Shown here in pieces: positions 32,913 to 45,787 of a stretch of 64,000 nt of DNA. The stretch is from Promethearchaeota archaeon. Its GTDB lineage: Archaea > Asgardarchaeota > Lokiarchaeia > Sigyniarchaeales > SOKP01. The notes beneath the pieces were generated by a model. The model ran no database searches and was not told where the DNA came from. It saw nothing but the letters and a program-made list of their open reading frames with translations. The translations under genes were made by a program, and so were the position numbers. The stretch spans positions 14,205 through 78,204 of the forward strand of contig RDOE01000004.1 of the NCBI GenBank assembly GCA_011364975.1, written 5' to 3'. How positions within the stretch are numbered: position 1 is the stretch's first letter; each line of letters opens with the position of its first letter.

Positions 32913-34877
32913 ATGGTAGAAACTGAAAATACAGATGAGGAACCAAGAATCTTCGTGGCTATATGCCAATGAGGAATTAATGTTGCTGAAATAATTGAAA
33001 CTCATTCACTGGCTGAATTTACCAAAACGTTACCAAATGTCGTAGATGCTCTTGATTATATAAGCCTTTGTACAGAACCTGGTGCTGAATTTATCAAAGA
33101 AAAAATGATTGAAAGCAACGCAAATAGGTTAGTAGTTGCCTCATGTACTCCAAAAACTCATGAACCTGTTTTTAAAAGCGTTCTTGAATCTATGGGATTA
33201 GATTCATCCTATCTTGAATTTGTAAACATTCGTGAGCATGCAAGTTTTGTCCATCGCCAAGATAAACCAGGAGCTCAAATGACAGCAGAGGATGCTATTC
33301 GTTCTGGCGTGGCAAGAGCTGCAGTTTTAGAAAAGATTTTAGTAAAAGAAGTCGATATCACAAAAAAGGCGTTAATAATCGGTGGAGGTGTAGCAGGCTT
33401 AGTTGCGGGAATTGATTTAGCTGAGGAAGGATTTGAAGTACATTTAGTTGAAAAATCTCCAACTATTGGTGGTAAAATGGCTATGCTAGATAGAACTTTT
33501 CCTACTGATGATTGTAGTATATGAATATTGGGACCCGTGATGTTACAAGCAGCAAGAACTCCCGGATTCAATATTTATACTTATAGCGAACTAGAGGATG
33601 TAAGTGGTTTTGTAGGTAATTTTAAAGCAAAGATCCGTAAAAGGGCGAGATATGTAACTAATGATTGTAATGGTTGTGGTTCATGCTTTGAAGTATGTCC
33701 TGCCTATGGATATGATGAATTTAATGAAGGAATGAACCCACGAAAAGCGATTTATGTATCATTTGCTCAAGCAGTTCCGTCAATGGCACAAATCGATATG
33801 AATAGATGTATTAAATGTGGTATGTGCAAAGAAGTATGTGAAGTTAAGGCTGTTGATTTTGATCAAAAGGATGAAATCATAGAACTTGAAGTTGGATCTA
33901 TTATTGTTGCTACTGGTTGGGATGAATATGAACCTGATAAAGGCTATTTAGGGTATAAGGTATACCCAAATGTTATAACTCAAATGAAGCTTGAACGAAT
34001 GCTTGCTCCTAATGGTCCTACTGTTGGGCATTTAGTCCGTCCTTCAGATGGAAAAAAGCCAGAAAGAATTTTATTCATCCAATGTGTAGGTTCAAGGGAC
34101 TTAAACAAACAAACGTATTGCAGTGCGGGAGTATGTTGCATGATTTCAATAAAAAATACAAAACTCATTAAACAGCATTATCCCGATATTGATATCACTG
34201 TTGCTTATATGGATATAAGAGCTGCTGGAAAAGATTATGAAGAGTATTTTACTGCATCACGAGCGGAAGGAATTAGATATGTAAGAACCAATGTTTCAAA
34301 AATCTATCAGGATCCTGAAACAAAAAACCTTAAAGTAATTCTTCAAAATACTTTAAGTAATACAGGACTAATAGAATTTGAATACGATCTAGTAGTTTTA
34401 TCGTGTGCTATGGTACCTGCTATTGGTGTTGATAAAATTGGTAAAATACTAAAACTTGAGACTTCTCAGGATGGCTTCTTTAAAGAATTTCATTCGCGGT
34501 TAAACCCAATTGACACAAAAATCCCTGGAATTGTTTTAGCTGGTGTCGCTCAAGGTCCAAAATCAATAGCAGAGTCAATTTCACAAGGAAGAGCTGCTGC
34601 ATCTTCTTTAGCTCGATTAATGAGTAAAGAAAAATACAGAATTTTATTAATCAGAGCTACTGTAGATAAGGATAAATGCGCTAAATGTGGACTTTGTGAA
34701 CTAAATTGTCCATATAATGCGATAAAATTAGAACCGGATGGAGCCGAGGTCAATGAAATTTTATGTAGAGGATGTGGTACGTGTCTAGCTAATTGTCCTT
34801 CTGAAGCAATCACTCTCAGGTATTATCGTGAACCTCAATATGAAAAACAAATCGATGCTATACTAGAGGAAATATAG
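32913..34877 (+). CDS. hdrA: Heterodisulfide reductase subunit A, selenoprotein (654 aa; Sec at TGA 32970-32972 and TGA 33522-33524)
   Basis: One continuous frame from ATG 32913: MVETENTDEEPRIFVAICQ-U-GINVA (HdrA CxCG motif)...VVASCTP, NIREH, IGGGVAG, TFPTDDCSI-U-ILGP, CNGCGSCFEVCP, QCVGSRD, YCSAGVCC, CRGCGTCLANCP. Joins ORFs 33105..33524 and 33528..34877. Confidence 0.95.
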
Positions 34878-39031: not shown

Positions 39032-40114
39032 ATGCAAACTTTTAAAATAATCCCTCAGTTTCGGGATAATTGCGTAATCCAAGGAAAGAAGGATTGGTTT
39101 CAGGATCTTAGTTTAGGAGATACGATATTTTTAATCGCAAATGAGCCTACTAAAAAATTCTCTATAATTACTAAAATAGATGGCATAGAGCCTGGAGAAG
39201 AACCAATTATATATGTAGATCAACGCAATTTGGAAAAATTTGCAGAAGGAGATAAGGTATATCTTTTAAAATATAACCCTGCAGAAGCAATTGAAGTTCG
39301 AATTCATATCTCCGATGAATATAGTCTTATTTCAAAAGGAGATTGGACCAAAAATATTAAACCTTCATTAACTAATAGATTGATTGATATAGGTCAAGAG
39401 ATTTCCTTTTTAATTCCATGGGATGCGGGAGATCCAATTATCGGAGCAGGGCTAATAACCTCTACTTTGCCGAATCCTCCATTATTCATCGGTGATCGAA
39501 CAAAAATTATTTTAGATAAATTTTCTAATGAGATTCTTTCTAAACTTAAACGTCTTACGATACAAAGTAAAGAAGATCGAGTAGAGATACTGGAAAAACA
39601 AATAGAGCAAAATATCATAGAGTTTATTAAGAAAATAAAACATCAAAATTACCCCTTCAAAGGTCAAAAATATCAATTTAAAGCAACAAATCCAAAACAA
39701 TTATTTGAGTCTATTCTCACATTATTTAAAGGTTTGGATATAATAGAAGAACCAGTTGAAAAAAATTTTGATGAGAAAGATCAAGATTATTTTGCATCAG
39801 TGGTCTTCTTAAATAGAGAAATTGTCCCATATTTACAACTGATTGATCTTCAAATTATTGGTCTTAAAAATACTGGCATGCTAATAATATGGGTTACTGG
39901 AGAAAAGGAAGAGATTGTTGAAGAGACATTAAACAATTATAATACAAAAATATCAGCATTAAAACAAGGTTTAGAACAACATATAAACCTAGTAAGCATA
40001 CAATGCCCAGAATGTGGCGGAGCTTTACCAATAAAAGATATTCAGATAAATGGTATTGTTGAATGTGCATACTGTGCTAGAATTTCTAAAATACCTAAAG
40101 CATTACGATATTAA
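39032..40114 (+). CDS. Cdc48/p97 N-domain-like protein lacking AAA ATPase, with C-terminal Zn ribbon
   Basis: IYVD......GDKV.L....PAEA.EV.I......IKPSL.NRLI..GQ.I.F......ITSTLP.PP..IGDRTKI matches the CDC48_N/CDC48_2 pattern. No Walker A. Ends with CPECGG...CAYC. Confidence 0.65.
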   Translation: MQTFKIIPQFRDNCVIQGKKDWFQDLSLGDTIFLIANEPTKKFSIITKIDGIEPGEEPIIYVDQRNLEKFAEGDKVYLLKYNPAEAIEVRIHISDEYSLISKGDWTKNIKPSLTNRLIDIGQEISFLIPWDAGDPIIGAGLITSTLPNPPLFIGDRTKIILDKFSNEILSKLKRLTIQSKEDRVEILEKQIEQNIIEFIKKIKHQNYPFKGQKYQFKATNPKQLFESILTLFKGLDIIEEPVEKNFDEKDQDYFASVVFLNREIVPYLQLIDLQIIGLKNTGMLIIWVTGEKEEIVEETLNNYNTKISALKQGLEQHINLVSIQCPECGGALPIKDIQINGIVECAYCARISKIPKALRY

Positions 40115-40131
40115 TTAAAGTGGAATTAATC

Positions 40132-40953
40132 ATGGATGAAAACCGATATACTAGACTCAAAGCGCTAAAAGATTTTGGATATGAAATTAACTGGGATGAT
40201 TTAAAAAGAAAAAGCGTTGCTATTATTGGTATAGGAGGTTTAGGAACTGTAAGTTCAGAAATGGTGACACGGTGTGGAGTGGGAAAATTAGCTTTATTTG
40301 ACTTTGATACAGTTGAACCAGTTAATCTTAATAGAAGTATGTTTAAACCGAAGCATATTGGAAAACCAAAGGCAGAGATAGCCGCAAAAATATTAAATGA
40401 AATCAATCCTGATGTTAAAATCTATTACTTTATTAAGGACATTATGGATATTGATTTTGAATTTACATTTGAAAAAGAACTTTCAAAGATGGACATAATT
40501 CTTAACGGACTTGATAATATTTCTGCTAGAGAATACCTTAATAGTAAATGTGTAAAGTTGAGAATTCCATATATTGATGCTGGAGCTTCTCGCAGCGGAT
40601 TATCGGGTTATATTCACCCCATTATTCCTTTCAAAACAGCATGTGCTAAATGTATTAAAAGTATAGCAATAAATCTTCCCGAAGAGAGAGGAGAGCCTTG
40701 TGTAGCATCTCTACCAACAACTATGGCGATACTAGCAAGTATTCAAGTGCAAGAAATGTTAAAACTTCTTCTAAAATTTGGTGAAATGATTGATTATGTT
40801 ATGTATCATATGATTACTGGACAATTCCTTCATTACAATACAAAGAAAGATAATAATTGTCCTATCTGTGGTATTAGAAAAAAAGACGGTAAAAGAATAA
40901 AGTCAAAGGTTACAGATAAAGATATAGAGGATATAATTGAAAAAATAGAATAA
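40132..40953 (+). CDS. UBA5: UBA5-like E1 activating enzyme
   Basis: RYTRLKALK..G, GIGGLG.V.SEMVTRCGVGKL.LFDFD.VE..NLNR..F.P, SG.I..IIP..TAC..C, catalytic CVASLPTTM, VQ..LK.LL.FG. These match eukaryotic UBA5 (YSRLMALK, AEMLTRCGIGKL, CAASLPTTM) rather than generic ThiF/MoeB. ATG 40132 or GTG 40120. Confidence 0.88.
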   Translation: MDENRYTRLKALKDFGYEINWDDLKRKSVAIIGIGGLGTVSSEMVTRCGVGKLALFDFDTVEPVNLNRSMFKPKHIGKPKAEIAAKILNEINPDVKIYYFIKDIMDIDFEFTFEKELSKMDIILNGLDNISAREYLNSKCVKLRIPYIDAGASRSGLSGYIHPIIPFKTACAKCIKSIAINLPEERGEPCVASLPTTMAILASIQVQEMLKLLLKFGEMIDYVMYHMITGQFLHYNTKKDNNCPICGIRKKDGKRIKSKVTDKDIEDIIEKIE

Positions 40954-40968
40954 ATTAGGTGGTTTATC

Positions 40969-42162
40969 ATCAAAAGGATCCAAATACCCCAAATTTTCAT
41001 TGAGGTCATTAAGAATCAAGCTATCCTTAGTTACGAAGAGATATATGGATGGCTAATTGGATATTCTGAGTCAAATGTAACTAAAGTGTTAGCAATTTAT
41101 GAATGTACACAATTTATAGAACAAACGGTTATCCATGCAATGCCAGATATATTAGAATTTCAAGAAATTAGTTCAGTTCTTCCTCAAGGTATTGGACCAA
41201 TAGGTATTTATCATTCTCATCCAAGCCTAAGTGATATTTTTCATTCTCATACTGATGATTCAACTCTGATAAGCTTAACAAATCAATTTCAAGATTGCAT
41301 CTCAATAATTACTAATGGACAGAACATTAAATTCTACCAAATGGGGAAAAATTATAAAACTAAAGAAATAGAAGTTGAGTATATTGAACCGGAAGTACCA
41401 AAATTTATGTTAGTTTCAATTAATGAAAAATTTGAAATTTTCATTGATCCCGAATTTTTAACTCAAGAAAAAAGTTTAAGTAAATTAAATATACAAATTC
41501 AAAATTTAATCATAAATTATTTTCAAAATAACTGGAACGAATTAGAATTTACACATAATAACTCAATAATAGGAAATAAAGATAAATTGCATAAATATTT
41601 AGTAGAGAAGTTAAATACGGAACCATTACGGCTTAAAATTCCATCTAATTTAAAGCAGCGTCATAGAAATTTATTAAAAGTTATCCAGAAAGGCAATAAG
41701 GATGATACTGTAAGTTACGAAGCTTTTGAATTTATTATTAATACAAAATTTCCACTCTATAATATTCGAAAGTATGATAATTTTGATACACTTAGTCAGA
41801 AAGTAAAGGATGAATTTTTAGGAAATAATCTCATTCAAAAATTGCATAATTTAATCATTGATAAAGAAAACCTTAGAATTATTATACCTAATGACTATTA
41901 TTTGAAGTTTTTTGGATTCTATATAAGAACTTTGAACTTCAATAAAAAAAACTTAAATGAAATCTTAATTAAGAATGAACCGTATAAGTTTGAATTGAAA
42001 ATAATTCGCTTTTTGAAATCCTTCATAAATTTGGAAGTTTCAATTAAGTTTAAGAACTATTTATATGAGCTTTTGAATAATTTGGAAGATTTTGCTGAAC
42101 ATTTTACATGGAAAGAGAAATTAAGTGAAGATTTAAAACAACTCAAAATTAACTTAAAGTAG
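40969..42162 (+). CDS. JAB/MPN+ (JAMM) metallo-isopeptidase with long C-terminal extension
   Basis: The frame upstream of the listed ORF contains the JAMM Glu motif EEIYGWLIG (about 41035-41061), followed by GIYHSHP..SHTD. No in-frame ATG/GTG/TTG precedes the Glu; SD AGGTGG (40957-62) points to ATC 40969. Confidence 0.8.
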   Translation: MKRIQIPQIFIEVIKNQAILSYEEIYGWLIGYSESNVTKVLAIYECTQFIEQTVIHAMPDILEFQEISSVLPQGIGPIGIYHSHPSLSDIFHSHTDDSTLISLTNQFQDCISIITNGQNIKFYQMGKNYKTKEIEVEYIEPEVPKFMLVSINEKFEIFIDPEFLTQEKSLSKLNIQIQNLIINYFQNNWNELEFTHNNSIIGNKDKLHKYLVEKLNTEPLRLKIPSNLKQRHRNLLKVIQKGNKDDTVSYEAFEFIINTKFPLYNIRKYDNFDTLSQKVKDEFLGNNLIQKLHNLIIDKENLRIIIPNDYYLKFFGFYIRTLNFNKKNLNEILIKNEPYKFELKIIRFLKSFINLEVSIKFKNYLYELLNNLEDFAEHFTWKEKLSEDLKQLKINLK

Positions 42163-42258: not shown

Positions 42259-42525
42259 ATGGCATCTGAATTAAATACCATCTATTTTGTTAATAAATTT
42301 GGAACAGAAAAAAAGCAAGTGCCATTCCCTGTTTCAGCAAACATTAAATTAATGGATGTTGTTCCAGAAATCTCAAAAAAGTTTGGAATCTCTTCTCAAA
42401 ATGTTTGTATTGCAAATATGGGAGGACAAGTACTAACTAATACAGACCTATTAAGTCCAATTAAAGAAATTGTTGAAAAGTTCGGAAATACTTTTGATAT
42501 TATTGATAGAGGGATTGTTGGGTGA
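42259..42525 (+). CDS. UFM1: UFM1-like ubiquitin-fold modifier (88 aa, mature C-terminal Val-Gly)
   Basis: Beta-grasp-sized, ends EKFGNTFDIIDRGIVG versus human UFM1 LKHGSELRIIPRDRVG. Single terminal Gly (VG), not GG. Lies in an operon with UBA5-like and UFC1-like genes. Confidence 0.85.
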   Translation: MASELNTIYFVNKFGTEKKQVPFPVSANIKLMDVVPEISKKFGISSQNVCIANMGGQVLTNTDLLSPIKEIVEKFGNTFDIIDRGIVG

Positions 42526-43064
42526 CCAGTTCAGATAAAAGATGGCAAAGGTCTATAGTAGATGAATTAATTCAAGAATTTTCTAACAATTGGGTTTCCA
42601 TAGGACCTAAAAATCCTGCATGGAAAGATCGGGTAAAGTTAGAGATCGAAAAAATTATGCAGTATATTAATTTCTTAAAGAATACTAAAAATAGACCTTG
42701 GTTTAAGTTATTTCCAGAACGAAATCCTCGTTATAATTATTTAATTTGGGCAGGAAATTTGGTTGTGCCTGAACGATCTGAAATAAATTTCGATATCAAA
42801 GTATTACTTACTTCTGAATATCCAAAAGTATGTCCAAGATGTTTCGCAGAAGAATCTATTTTAAATTACTGTGGTAAAATATTTTTGAAGAATATATGGG
42901 AACAGGATAGTAAAAAGTACGTAATGATATGTCATGAACATATGTCTGATACTAATGCATGGAATGAGCGTCTTGGTATTGTTCATTTCTTTATACGCCA
43001 GGTATGGGTATGGTGGGCTGCTCAACAAAATGTAATTATCCAAGAATATGATAAAAAACATTAA
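42522..43064 (+). CDS. UFC1: UFC1-like E2 conjugating enzyme
   Basis: GPKNPAWKDRVKLEIEKIMQYINFLKNTKNRPWFKL vs UFC1 [36 protein letters not shown]. FDI....EYP...P. CGK in place of the UFC1 TAK motif, no HPN. Catalytic ICHEH (C137) vs ICLTDH; LGIVHF vs FGLAHL. GTG start overlaps the UFM1 stop. Confidence 0.9.
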   Translation: MTSSDKRWQRSIVDELIQEFSNNWVSIGPKNPAWKDRVKLEIEKIMQYINFLKNTKNRPWFKLFPERNPRYNYLIWAGNLVVPERSEINFDIKVLLTSEYPKVCPRCFAEESILNYCGKIFLKNIWEQDSKKYVMICHEHMSDTNAWNERLGIVHFFIRQVWVWWAAQQNVIIQEYDKKH

Positions 43065-43272: not shown

Positions 43273-44655
43273 ATGTCTAGAGAATCCAACCAACCCTCCA
43301 ATACTAAGGATATGCCAATTAGCTTACAAGGGATTGAAAAAATCTTGATTTTTTTAAATAATAATGATAAAATCCTTTTTAGTATTAGAGAAATTGGTTA
43401 CAAGACTAAGTTATCGACCCGAACGGTCAAAAATATTCTACTGCAATTAGAAAAATTTAATCAGGTTGAACGTGTCATTGAAGGGAATAATGTTATCCCA
43501 AAATGGCAAATCACTAAATTCGGAAAAAGAGTATTAAAAGAAGCTAAGGGTGTTGGGAATAATATCACATTTTCTACAAGAGAAGAAGAATTGTTAAAAG
43601 GAATAGTGATACCTCAAGAAAAATTTCTTGATAATGATTTAAAAAAGACTTTAGATAGAGCACTATCTGAATTAAATACTATGCAAGTTGAAATAAGTAA
43701 AATTTTGGGGTCAATTCTTAATATAAATAATCCAATTTTAGAAGAAACTACTGGATTCATTTTAAAAAGAATCAAATTTCTCAAGCAAAAACTTACTAAT
43801 TTGTTTGATGACCGAACATCTCAAATTTCTAAAGTGGGTGAAAAATCAAAGAAATTTTCCAAAGAAGAGATAAAATTTAATAAAGTGGAAAAATTGCTCT
43901 TCAACTCATTAATTATTAATCAGATGAAGAGAATTTCAGATATAATTATAGATCTTTCCAATAATGTTGAACATCTAGAAGTTAATAATTCTCTCTCTCT
44001 TGCTAATGATTTAAGAGACGAGATTAGGATCATAAGTGACTTAATTAATCAAAGGGAATCATTAAAAATAGGTTTAAATATTCTTCTAAAAGAAGATTTA
44101 AAACAACTTTCCAATAATAAAATTGCACCTGATATTCTGGATAAAATAATTGAGATTCCCTTGTCTGAGGATATTTTAGGGAGAGAAGTTGGAGAAACGG
44201 TACTAACGTTATTAAACAGGTTAAATAAAAATGAGACAGTTCTTATAGATCATAATTATGAATTGACAGATTTTATTCCTTTGTTTAAACTCTTTCAGCT
44301 TATTTTAGATGAAAAGCCCAATTTAAACTTTACCATCGATAAATTAGAAGAAACAATCAATGAACTCTCTGAACAAGGATACATCCCTGGAATGAAAACT
44401 ATTCGGGATGCAGAAAACAATTATTTGAAAGTAGTTCAACTTAAACCTCATGATGTTTCACAAGATGAGATAGAATTAGTAAAAATTGCATTGAAGCAAG
44501 AAAAGTTTACTCTCGCAGATATTATCAAATTAACAGGTTGGTCTCCAGAACACGCATCAGAACTTTTAAATAAGCTAACAAAGCTTGGAATATTAAACTA
44601 TTCCAGGTCTTTTTTACATGGAGAACGATGGTTTGTTATAACCGAGCAAAAATAA
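43273..44655 (+). CDS. N-terminal winged-HTH + helical bundle + C-terminal EAP30 (Vps22/Vps36, ESCRT-II)-like tandem winged helix
   Basis: N: SIREIGYKTKLSTRTVKNILLQLEKFNQV...WQITKFG. C: VQLKPHDVSQDEIELVKIALKQEKFTLADIIKLTGWSPEHASELLNKLTKLGI resembles Vps22 QSVPAELNMDHTVVLQLAEKNGYVTVSEIKASLKWETERARQVLEHLLKEG. Confidence 0.65.
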   Translation: MSRESNQPSNTKDMPISLQGIEKILIFLNNNDKILFSIREIGYKTKLSTRTVKNILLQLEKFNQVERVIEGNNVIPKWQITKFGKRVLKEAKGVGNNITFSTREEELLKGIVIPQEKFLDNDLKKTLDRALSELNTMQVEISKILGSILNINNPILEETTGFILKRIKFLKQKLTNLFDDRTSQISKVGEKSKKFSKEEIKFNKVEKLLFNSLIINQMKRISDIIIDLSNNVEHLEVNNSLSLANDLRDEIRIISDLINQRESLKIGLNILLKEDLKQLSNNKIAPDILDKIIEIPLSEDILGREVGETVLTLLNRLNKNETVLIDHNYELTDFIPLFKLFQLILDEKPNLNFTIDKLEETINELSEQGYIPGMKTIRDAENNYLKVVQLKPHDVSQDEIELVKIALKQEKFTLADIIKLTGWSPEHASELLNKLTKLGILNYSRSFLHGERWFVITEQK

Positions 44656-44686: not shown

Positions 44687-45787
44687 ATGTATAAGGAAAT
44701 AAAAGGTAAAAGTGTTGTTGATTCCGAGCCAGAGATTATTGCTTGGCAACGTCATGGGATTGATACTAAAAATGGGCCGCTAATTTATGTATTTCCTAAA
44801 CCAGGTGATGATATAAAAAGCAAGAAATTTTTTGCTGTAAAAGATTATGAAAGAGCATTATTTTATAATAAGGGAGAACTTCTAGGAGTCCTCGGGGGCG
44901 GGGTCTATGAACTAGAGAAAAAGGCAAAAATAAAGGGGACGGAGATCGTTTGGATTGACACCTCTTTTGTAGACATCCAGTGGGGAATACCACAATCTAG
45001 TGGTATACCCACTTTGGATGGTACTATTCTCGGTTTACATGGAGATCTAAAATTGAAAATAAGGGATGTTAAAATATTTTACAATGATGTAGTAGCTGGT
45101 AAAAGCCCTTGGACCGTTCAAAATCTGAAAGAATTTATAATGAGTCTACTGCATACATCCTTTAGAGATATATTTAAAAAATATAAGGCTAAACAAGTTT
45201 TACTAGAGGAGCGAGAGCGAATAATTAATCTACTTACAGCGAAGGTCGCCGAGGATTTTTTAAGATATGGTTTAGAGCTAGAAACCTTGAATATACTTGG
45301 TGTTAAAACCTCTGAAGGTACAGAAACTCTTTTTAGAGTAGAAAAAGAAAAAAGTAATGTTTCAGATGAGATCGAAATTTTAAAAATAAAAAAAGATCTT
45401 GACGCTCAAAAAATGGAATTAGAGGCTGCTAAACGAGAATTTCATCGAAAAGAAGAGATTTTAGATTCTCGTATGGAATTGGAAAAATCTAAACTTCAAA
45501 CTGAGGCAGAAAAGATTGAGGGAGAAGCTAAATCTGCTGTGTTGGAAAAACACGCTAGAGCGGCTGTAGCAGGAGAGATGAGAATATTGGAGGTTCATGG
45601 AGATAAAGCATTAGAAATCGCAGATAGTAGTAGAAAGGATCAAATTCGGGCTAAGATTGATGAATTAAAAGAAAAGTTAGATAAATTTGATAATTTATTA
45701 GCAGAAGATAAAATTTCAAAGGATATTTATAAAACAAGAGTAGAGCGAATTGAAAAAGAACTGAAAGCGCTTGAACAACAACTTTAA
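44687..45787 (+). CDS. SPFH/band-7 domain protein (YdjI-like) with coiled coil and SHOCT-like tail
   Basis: V...ERALF..KGE.LGVL.GG.YEL, IQWG, F..YGLELETLNI, long coiled coil, LLAEDKISKDIY tail. Confidence 0.78.
   Translation: MYKEIKGKSVVDSEPEIIAWQRHGIDTKNGPLIYVFPKPGDDIKSKKFFAVKDYERALFYNKGELLGVLGGGVYELEKKAKIKGTEIVWIDTSFVDIQWGIPQSSGIPTLDGTILGLHGDLKLKIRDVKIFYNDVVAGKSPWTVQNLKEFIMSLLHTSFRDIFKKYKAKQVLLEERERIINLLTAKVAEDFLRYGLELETLNILGVKTSEGTETLFRVEKEKSNVSDEIEILKIKKDLDAQKMELEAAKREFHRKEEILDSRMELEKSKLQTEAEKIEGEAKSAVLEKHARAAVAGEMRILEVHGDKALEIADSSRKDQIRAKIDELKEKLDKFDNLLAEDKISKDIYKTRVERIEKELKALEQQL

Follow-up and report, generated by a model that had tools for sequence, protein, structure and literature searches.

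A candidate adaptor protein with a Cdc48-N-like predicted fold in an Asgard archaeal ubiquitin-like conjugation module

Introduction

The N-domain of Cdc48/p97 docks UBX and UBX-like β-grasp domains as well as short cofactor motifs. UFD1 binds ubiquitin with the same N-domain fold, and it reaches Cdc48 through motifs located outside that fold. Here we analysed a protein predicted to have this fold, encoded at 39032..40114 of a 64,000-nucleotide stretch of DNA (the window) from a Promethearchaeota archaeon (contig RDOE01000004.1). Its gene is the first of seven co-directional genes, among which are those for a ubiquitin-like protein (Ubl), an E1-like adenylyltransferase and a UFC1-like E2. We refer to it as the lead gene and to its product as the lead protein.

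As stated in passages of PMC10183829, UFM1 and UFC1 are exclusive to eukaryotes, and UFL1 and DDRGK1 are of Asgard origin. Structure-based Ufm1 homologues in Asgard archaea are described in the later PMC12962969; the terms UFC1, UBA5, UFL1, Cdc48, operon and neighbourhood are absent from its main text. Full-text searches, with supplementary files outside their scope, found no paper describing the family of the lead protein, its fusion partner or the operon, and the family and its fusion partner appear to be undescribed.

Our analysis leads us to propose, at even chances, that the lead protein is a non-enzymatic adaptor or scaffold subunit dedicated to a self-contained Asgard Ubl-conjugation module. 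It is the least understood and the most tightly linked of the three accessory proteins in this compact operon.

Results

Conservation and predicted fold of the lead protein

The lead gene starts with ATG and runs for 360 codons to the C-terminal end ...SKIPKALRY. A search of 5.8 billion clustered proteins found 125 relatives at E≤0.001, nearly all of them 358-361 residues long and 45-84% identical to the lead protein. Where names are given, they are hypothetical proteins of Promethearchaeota, Lokiarchaeota or Hermodarchaeota. Because the relatives are this numerous and nearly all of similar length, sequence comparison identifies the lead gene as a conserved gene and not a chance open reading frame. 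The gene and the parts of its product are:

39032..40114, forward strand: lead gene, encoding a Cdc48-N-like, α/β and zinc-ribbon protein of 360 amino acids (open reading frame, 125 relatives, AlphaFold2 model)
39032..39526, forward strand: residues 1-165, predicted N-domain fold of the Cdc48/p97/VAT/UFD1 type (Foldseek, VIA-align, conservation)
39527..39643, forward strand: residues 166-204, predicted connecting helices with the invariant R183 (DSSP on the model, alignments)
39644..39976, forward strand: residues 205-315, predicted β-α-β4-α domain (VIA-align on the model)
39995..40081, forward strand: residues 322-350, single C4 zinc ribbon CPEC...CAYC (LysW matches below threshold, invariant cysteines)
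40088..40111, forward strand: residues 353-360, conserved C-terminal tail SKIPKALRY (alignments)

The AlphaFold2 (AF2) model of the lead protein was built on a 32-row alignment. Its mean predicted local distance difference test score (pLDDT) is 82.9, rising to 86-92 over residues 1-170 and falling off around the ribbon. In the model, the N-domain consists of a double-psi barrel and a second β-barrel. All 39 rows listed in a Foldseek comparison with the PDB (ranks 1-50, with gaps) are p97, VCP, Cdc48 or VAT chains containing the N-domain. The best match is 7ln4_D (E 6.0e-8), template modelling (TM) scores normalised to isolated N-domain chains are 0.64-0.70, and the matched entries are complexes of the p97 N-domain with partners of the kinds mentioned above. 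VIA-align of residues 1-165 against a library of 48,161 representative chains placed the Cdc48A N-domain first (Z 12.2, 157 aligned residues, root-mean-square deviation 3.5), followed by the N-domains of PEX1 (Z 11.7), NSF (10.7), Pex6 (N1, 10.1), VAT (10.0) and Sec18 (9.8) and by UFD1 (9.2). In a viral structure library, UFD1 of a giant virus is the top match (E 7.7e-6), and the other five matches at E≤0.001 include a second UFD1 and AAA/NSF-type ATPases.

An earlier note on this DNA, made from the letters alone, had read a Cdc48 N-domain pattern in the first ~165 residues. The predicted structure confirms, at the level of fold only, that residues 1-165 belong to the Cdc48-N/UFD1 superfamily, and sequence profiles give this assignment no support. 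Pfam yielded no match of the lead protein to CDC48_N (PF02359), CDC48_2 (PF02933) or UFD1 at E≤1, and NCBIfam and the ESM Atlas yielded no N-domain homology to Cdc48-N or UFD1. A 32-member profile run against all PDB sequences found no N-domain match and LysW ribbons only (E 0.047). Alignment of the N-domain with that of the genome's own Cdc48 by hhalign returned a probability of 0.1%. In the model comparison, UFD1 scores below Cdc48-N, which shows a shared superfamily fold and no specific kinship.

The same note had described a helical and α/β region followed by a CPEC...CAYC ribbon, and no Walker motif, and the model and alignments bear this description out. Helices at residues 166-192 and 196-204 are followed by a predicted five-stranded α/β domain, whose strands and helices span residues 209-314. 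This middle domain resembles Bet v1/START/AHSA1, KA1, Roco COR and adaptin/COPI appendage chains at VIA-align Z scores of 9-11.7. None of them stands out, and the domain may be helix-grip-, KA1- or appendage-platform-like. Four of the five cysteines in the protein make up one C4 ribbon, and CPEC (325) and CAYC (345) are its sole CxxC pairs. The ribbon matches Pfam Zn_ribbon_LysW (PF21344) with 16.9 bits, under the cut-off of 27, and PDB LysW is its best sequence-profile match (E 0.047). The lead protein contains no Walker A/B pattern, has no AAA match in Pfam and stops at residue 360. Neither Pfam nor NCBIfam assigns it to an enzyme family. It has no RING, U-box, RBR or HECT match in Pfam, the ribbon providing only one C4 site, and no match to PF09743 or PF09756, the winged-helix families of UFL1 and DDRGK1.

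In the 32-sequence alignment of the close family, all four ribbon cysteines are invariant. The invariant set of the N-domain includes P8, Q9, R11, K41, S44, G103, T106, D119, G121, P147, P149 and P150, and P355, K356, R359 and Y360 at the C-terminus are invariant as well. When a profile was searched against 1.84 billion representatives, 102 proteins matched at E≤0.001, and 39 of these at E≤1e-30. Across 23 diverse members, R11, S44, D63, V76, A86, G103, W105, D119, P147, P150, T157, K163, R183 and G282 are near-invariant, together with the ribbon, and most of these members end in a tail of the form hydrophobic-Pro-x-x-[Leu/Tyr]-Arg-x.

No fused forms longer than 630 residues were found among the close relatives. 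In profile searches, the N-domain also forms the C-terminal end of a STAND-like NTPase and the N-terminal end of a leucine-rich repeat (LRR) protein, and its recurrence as a terminal module fits a role as a binding module. The α/β domain and zinc ribbon also terminate many otherwise unrelated proteins, including FG-GAP/PQQ propellers, TPR proteins, WD40 plus thioredoxin proteins, and DUF2341 and TRAP_beta proteins (carriers, by our own protein numbers, include P0171, P0176, P0178, P0179, P0181, P0183, P0193, P0194, P0196, P0200, P0201 and P0204). Judged by these sequence matches, the C-terminal part is a mobile module. We rejected the idea that it is the hallmark of a set of modular E3s encoded by this genome: there is no second copy among 9,091 open reading frames, in which a close profile and a broader profile from 20 distant carriers found only short zinc-ribbon matches.

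Organization of the seven-gene module

The lead gene is followed on the same strand by six genes:

40120..40953, forward strand: E1-like ThiF/MoeB adenylyltransferase (Pfam ThiF, 9.1e-53)
40954..42162, forward strand: JAB/MPN metalloprotease with a long C-terminal extension (Pfam Prok-JAB, 3.1e-4)
42259..42525, forward strand: Ubl of 88 amino acids, ending ...DRGIVG (open reading frame, alignment with relatives)
42522..43064, forward strand: UFC1-like E2, overlapping the Ubl stop codon by 4 bases (Pfam UFC1, 26.3 bits, cut-off 25)
43273..44655, forward strand: winged-helix, helical-hairpin and tandem winged-helix protein of 460 amino acids (AF2, Foldseek, VIA-align, fusion)
44687..45787, forward strand: SPFH/Band-7 protein with a coiled-coil tail (Pfam Band_7, 2e-10; synteny)

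The lead gene thus heads the cluster, as the earlier note had it, and the E1 gene starts 5 bases past its stop codon. The Ubl in the window is translated already mature, with the C-terminus Gly-Ile-Val-Gly. Neither a genome-wide search with Pfam Ufm1 nor a comparison with all PDB sequences gave a match to it. The label 'UFM1 operon' rests on the E2, whose profile matches human UFC1 at E 9e-6. C107, C137, H138 and H140 of the E2 are invariant and C104 and C117 near-invariant; the catalytic cysteine of human UFC1 aligns two residues past C117, and these residues may form a zinc site.

Five of 15 aligned relatives are in-frame fusions in which the E2 follows straight after the terminal glycine of the Ubl (open reading frames of ~270 residues at our loci L003, L010, L014, L016 and L019). 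Such fusions give the JAB protease an obvious processing job and imply JAB-dependent processing. The frame of the JAB gene is open from 40954, and its first canonical start is a GTG at 41086. The 44 open codons in between (40954-41085) hold the Glu motif of the JAMM site and no ATG, GTG or TTG. The start of this gene is likely non-canonical, because a Shine-Dalgarno-like AGGTGG followed by ATC codons is present in this segment in place of a usual start. Read-through from the E1 gene into the JAB gene was considered, because one TAA is all that separates the two in-phase frames in the window, and was set aside because the frames differ at other loci.

A scan of one genome per species yielded 21 loci with the lead gene, whose open reading frames were compared with the window proteins by BLAST. 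The E1 gene lies directly downstream of the lead gene in all 17 loci with DNA beyond it; of the other four, L013 and L018 end inside the gene and L020 and L021 hold a short N-terminal match only. All 16 loci long enough to show it keep the order lead gene-E1-JAB, and on every contig that extends further the Ubl and E2 come next. An SPFH gene always accompanies the winged-helix gene, but the position of the pair moves: it is upstream on the same strand at seven loci, upstream and divergent at three, and downstream at five and in the window. In the distant lineages L031-L037, the linkage of the lead gene to the module persists despite rearrangement.

We also searched 400 Asgard genomes with profiles of the lead protein and the E2. 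The lead profile matched 47 genomes, of which 9 have the C-terminal module only, 1 (G233) has decayed fragments and 37 have a family member. The E2 profile matched 36, among them G260 and G276 with decayed fragments and G153 with a fusion protein. Both proteins are present in 32 genomes, the lead protein only in 5, the E2 only in 4 and neither in 359. Where both occur, they share a contig within 13 kb in 28 of the 32 genomes. At least one of the genomes with the lead protein only reflects a contig end: that of G250 (the same as L011) stops just past the Ubl. Conservation of the gene next to those for the E1, Ubl and E2, on which the earlier note had made its proposal depend, is therefore what we found, with an adjacent E1 at 17 of 17 loci and an E2 in 32 of the 37 genomes with the lead protein.

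The winged-helix neighbour and its fusion with the lead protein

The AF2 model of the 460-residue neighbour (pLDDT 83.3) contains an N-terminal winged helix, helical hairpins (residues 116-263) and a C-terminal tandem winged helix, and Pfam gives weak helix-turn-helix matches at both ends. Only two Foldseek matches reach E≤0.001, both to human ESCRT-II SNF8/Vps22 (2zme_A and 3cuq_A, ~5e-5, best 4.9e-5). VIA-align matched residues 298-460 to yeast ESCRT-II (1w7p_A, Z 10.8). The model places the neighbour among winged-helix repeat proteins, in the structural class of Vps22/36 and UFL1. Because it is closer to Vps22 than to UFL1-DDRGK1, calling it E3-like is an analogy.

In two distant lineages, L032 and L034, the sole relative of the lead protein is a fusion protein of 464-475 residues. 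The N-terminal part of the 464-residue fusion in L032 aligns with residues 3-317 of the lead protein (hhalign probability 99.6%, E 1.7e-24), and its C-terminal part aligns with residues 334-456 of the winged-helix protein (95.8%, E 7e-9). The fusion in L034 matches both profiles likewise. The 18-20 kb retrieved at each of these two loci showed no additional, separate winged-helix gene. Further fused relatives are P0150-P0152, P0161 and P0172. Among 41 full-length representatives of the N-domain family, the strict C4 ribbon is present in 28 and the winged-helix end in 5, with no protein combining the two. The fusion is an observation new here, and it and the zinc ribbon are mutually exclusive. 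We infer from the fusions in L032 and L034 that the lead protein and the winged-helix protein act as one unit. Where they are separate polypeptides, the ribbon and tail would be the parts that join the lead protein to its neighbour.

The fusion also bears on the choice, left open in the earlier note, between an adaptor and a substrate. If the lead protein were itself the main acceptor of the Ubl, encoded beside its modifier, its place as the first gene of the operon would be natural, and acceptor lysines would be available: four of them (K41, K80, K203 and K356) do not vary within the close family, and the wide family shows near-invariance at K163. K356, however, is not retained across the wide family, and a folded protein of three domains with an N-domain of a ligand-binding type exceeds what an acceptor needs. 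Fusion to a winged-helix module favours an adaptor or scaffold subunit over a substrate, and the mutual exclusion of ribbon and fusion likewise suggests an assembly role. The adaptor half of the earlier claim is thus favoured, and we consider the substrate half improbable.

Alternatively, the lead protein and its Vps22/36-like partner could form an ESCRT-II-like receptor that acts like Vps36, together with the SPFH protein, at membranes. Besides the structural matches to human and yeast ESCRT-II Vps22/36, which are the best for the neighbour, the C-terminus of the neighbour is the second-best match to Pfam EAP30 in this genome (E 0.039, below the cut-off), after a 242-residue Vps22-like gene (6e-9). 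At L031, the gene order is E1-JAB-Ubl-E2-[345-residue protein]-SPFH, with the lead gene 2.4 kb away on the opposite strand. The 345-residue protein is the positional counterpart of the neighbour, passes the EAP30 cut-off (34.2 bits) and aligns with the C-terminus of the neighbour (hhalign E 3.6e-5). The constant pairing of the SPFH gene with the winged-helix gene would suit a membrane role, and no Vps36 homologue is identifiable in Asgard genomes according to the passages of PMC9192718 that concern this. The lead protein, however, has no GLUE/PH domain, the module is patchy in its spread unlike core ESCRT genes, and the likeness is one of fold class only. The unnamed neighbours at L037 gave no ESCRT match (Vps25, ESCRT-III) in Pfam at E≤1, a search that did not extend to the window flanks. 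We regard such a receptor as quite doubtful.

Distribution of the module

The module is patchy and rare even among close relatives. Among 41 other genomes of the same genus, 6 match, 5 with an intact module and 1 with a decayed remnant. In a sister genus, 7 of 54 genomes carry the module, and across the family of 134 genomes, the lead protein occurs in 22 and the E2 in 20. Several non-carriers are rated 99-100% complete. Short, stop-interrupted remnants of the lead gene or the E2 gene are present in three genomes otherwise without the module (G233:C96, G260:C2 and G276:C9) and indicate recent loss. One genome, G241, carries two copies.

This distribution raises the possibility that the module is the Asgard counterpart of bacterial Ubl-conjugation immune operons, which reportedly include the CBASS Cap2/Cap3 and Bil types, with the lead protein as the sensor or target-recognition part. 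Such a reading overlaps with the adaptor proposal in mechanism and differs from it in biology. In addition to the patchiness among near-complete genomes of one genus, the remnants and the double copy, several domain combinations point in this direction. A TIR domain is located at the N-terminus of forms of the lead protein of 537-557 residues (P0075, P0082, P0101, P0130 and L011:3247-4857), and the form in L011, a 537-residue frame, occupies the usual position in the operon. The reverse strand of L038 (5834-8524) encodes an 897-residue fusion in which SIR2_2 and TPR repeats are combined with a UFC1-like E2, and which matches the Ubl weakly; no homologue of the lead protein was seen in that genome. 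The N-domain also terminates the STAND-like NTPase described above. However, neither TIR nor SIR2 domains are confined to immunity.

Comparison with defence systems gave a similarly divided result. The E1 matches Cap2-type E1-E2 models of PADLOC (1e-17), but these matches reflect the shared ThiF fold alone; PADLOC has no model for the lead protein, JAB, Ubl or SPFH protein, and the lead protein has no match in it. The flanks outside the seven genes vary between loci, which favours a defence function, but the flanks at nine loci (67 open reading frames) are mostly metabolic or housekeeping genes and form no defence islands, a MazE-type antitoxin domain being the sole defence-type match. No relative of the lead protein was found in phage records or IMG/VR contigs. 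Overall, we consider a defence function unlikely, although the TIR and SIR2 fusions keep it under consideration.

UFL1-like and Cdc48 genes elsewhere in the genome

The earlier note had recognized no UFL1 or RING E3 in the operon. This stands for the lead protein, which has no RING or UFL1 match, and has to be qualified in two respects: the neighbour is of the Vps22/36-UFL1 class by fold, and a protein with Pfam-grade UFL1 and DDRGK matches is encoded on another contig. The latter, of 789 residues (G000:C162, L022:808-3177), matches PF09743 (E3_UFM1_ligase) and PF09756 (DDRGK), has further Pfam matches to PCI and Vps28, and is unlinked to the Ubl cluster. Its architecture resembles fusions mentioned in a preprint (10.1101/2020.10.19.343400). 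The gene is found in 114 of the 134 family genomes and in 34 of the 41 from the genus, compared with 20-22 of 134 for the cluster. Being near-universal in the family while the cluster is rare, this protein cannot be the dedicated ligase of the cluster, which therefore needs specificity factors of its own; in genomes with both, it might nonetheless serve the module. PMC10183829 suggests that UFM1 may not be required for the action of Asgard UFL1/DDRGK1, and the much greater frequency of the UFL1-like gene than of the module agrees with that suggestion.

We also considered whether the lead protein could recruit Ubl-modified proteins to Cdc48, or mimic the Cdc48 N-domain or compete with it for cofactors. 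Its predicted fold is common to the p97 N-domain and UFD1, and a genome-wide search with PF02359 found three Cdc48 genes. All three are on other contigs, and neither the cluster in the window nor the related loci examined have a linked Cdc48 gene. In one distant lineage, a Vps4-like AAA ATPase (AAA and Vps4_C domains, L037:12103-13281) is encoded two genes after the JAB gene, but this neighbour occurs at 1 of the 8 distant loci fetched. Nothing comparable to the motifs by which UFD1 reaches Cdc48 was identified in the lead protein, SHP and NPL4-binding motifs not being among those searched for. The link to Cdc48 extraction proposed in the earlier note accordingly finds no support in gene context, and we consider a bridging function very improbable.

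Other features of the locus and window

A Thioredoxin_9 protein (~170 residues) and a ~680-residue protein without a Pfam match adjoin the cluster in 3 of 9 loci examined (L002:9802-12483, L007:12255-14880 and L015:3332-5982). The window contains no tRNA genes. At 33105-34877, two HdrA-like open reading frames are in phase and separated only by a TGA at 33522-33524 (...DDCSI-TGA-ILGPV...); they probably represent one selenocysteine-containing HdrA and not two genes.

Discussion

Combining the predicted structures with gene order and fusions provided insights into how the lead protein may function. In the proposed adaptor or scaffold role, the module would consist of the E1, the JAB protease, the 88-residue Ubl, the UFC1-like E2, the lead protein, the tandem winged-helix protein and the SPFH protein. 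The lead protein and the winged-helix protein would be the two halves of a non-catalytic scaffold around the E2. The Cdc48/UFD1-type N-domain would serve as the recognition arm, and by analogy to the N-domains of p97 and UFD1, its ligand may be a short target peptide or a β-grasp fold, namely the Ubl in free, E2-bound or target-attached form. The zinc ribbon and the conserved tail would dock the lead protein onto the winged-helix protein. The pair could then either promote E2 discharge as a scaffold-type E3, like UFL1-DDRGK1, or read the tag as a receptor, like UFD1 or Vps36. The even chance that we give to the proposal covers the E3 and receptor versions jointly and is not split between the two.

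Several points weigh against this proposal. The likeness of the N-domain is structural only and is based on a predicted model. The match of the neighbour to the UFL1-DDRGK1 chimera 8b9x is weak (E 0.036, rank 30), and ESCRT-II Vps22 is a better one. The ribbon and the fusion together do not account for the whole family: 8 of the 41 have neither a strict C4 ribbon nor the fusion, some of them with variant cysteine spacing. The co-occurrence figures are counts and not the outcome of a test, and they overstate the support because related genomes are not independent samples. A different biology, namely defence, may be indicated by the forms with a TIR domain and by the patchy distribution.

A more far-reaching version of the proposal is that the lead protein and the winged-helix protein form a hitherto unrecognised, RING-less, UFL1-independent recognition complex for a Ufm1/UFC1-type modifier of Asgard archaea. 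This complex would be a split Vps36/UFD1-like assembly, with a β-grasp-binding head on a Vps22/36-type winged-helix body, and would represent an archaeal stage before Ubl receptors of the ESCRT-II type and of the Cdc48-cofactor type separated. We put this forward as a speculation that is more probably wrong than right by a wide measure.

If the lead protein is a recognition subunit, the seven genes would constitute a tractable minimal system for experiments. Such a system could show how targets are chosen by a UFM1-type cascade without UFL1, and how ATPase-less Cdc48-N folds such as that of UFD1 came to read ubiquitin-like tags. The patchy spread and the TIR and SIR2 fusions raise the possibility that the module has a function in conflict or stress instead of housekeeping.

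Comparison with known systems

With its single C4 ribbon, the lead protein resembles LysW, which has a ribbon of similar length and is the best sub-threshold sequence match. It differs in its score (16.9 bits against the cut-off of 27) and in its tail, which is basic and aromatic (IPKALRY); LysW carries an acidic C-terminal carrier tail. The N-domain of Cdc48, p97 and VAT shares with the lead protein a two-lobed fold over ~160 residues, as predicted by the model. In contrast to these ATPases, the lead protein has no D1/D2 AAA rings or Walker motifs and has an α/β domain and a ribbon in their place, and no profile connects it to CDC48_N, CDC48_2 or the Cdc48 of this genome.

UFD1 is closer in being ATPase-less, and the lead protein shares the fold of its UT3 N-domain according to the model (2yuj, Z 9.2, 154 aligned residues; viral UFD1, E 7.7e-6). 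It differs from UFD1 in lacking a Pfam UFD1 match, in its downstream domains and in its linkage to a UFC1-like E2 and a Ubl, not to ubiquitin. The likeness to UFL1-DDRGK1 lies in the UFC1-type E2 and in what would be a non-catalytic scaffold of two proteins, with the winged-helix repeats supplied by the neighbour. The lead protein itself, however, contains no winged helix, the neighbour matches 8b9x at E 0.036, and the Pfam-level UFL1/DDRGK of the genome is another gene. Lastly, the head of Vps36 is a GLUE/PH domain, in place of which the lead protein has a predicted Cdc48-N fold. As in Vps36, the fused relatives join a candidate Ubl-binding head to a tandem winged helix of the Vps22/36 type in one polypeptide.

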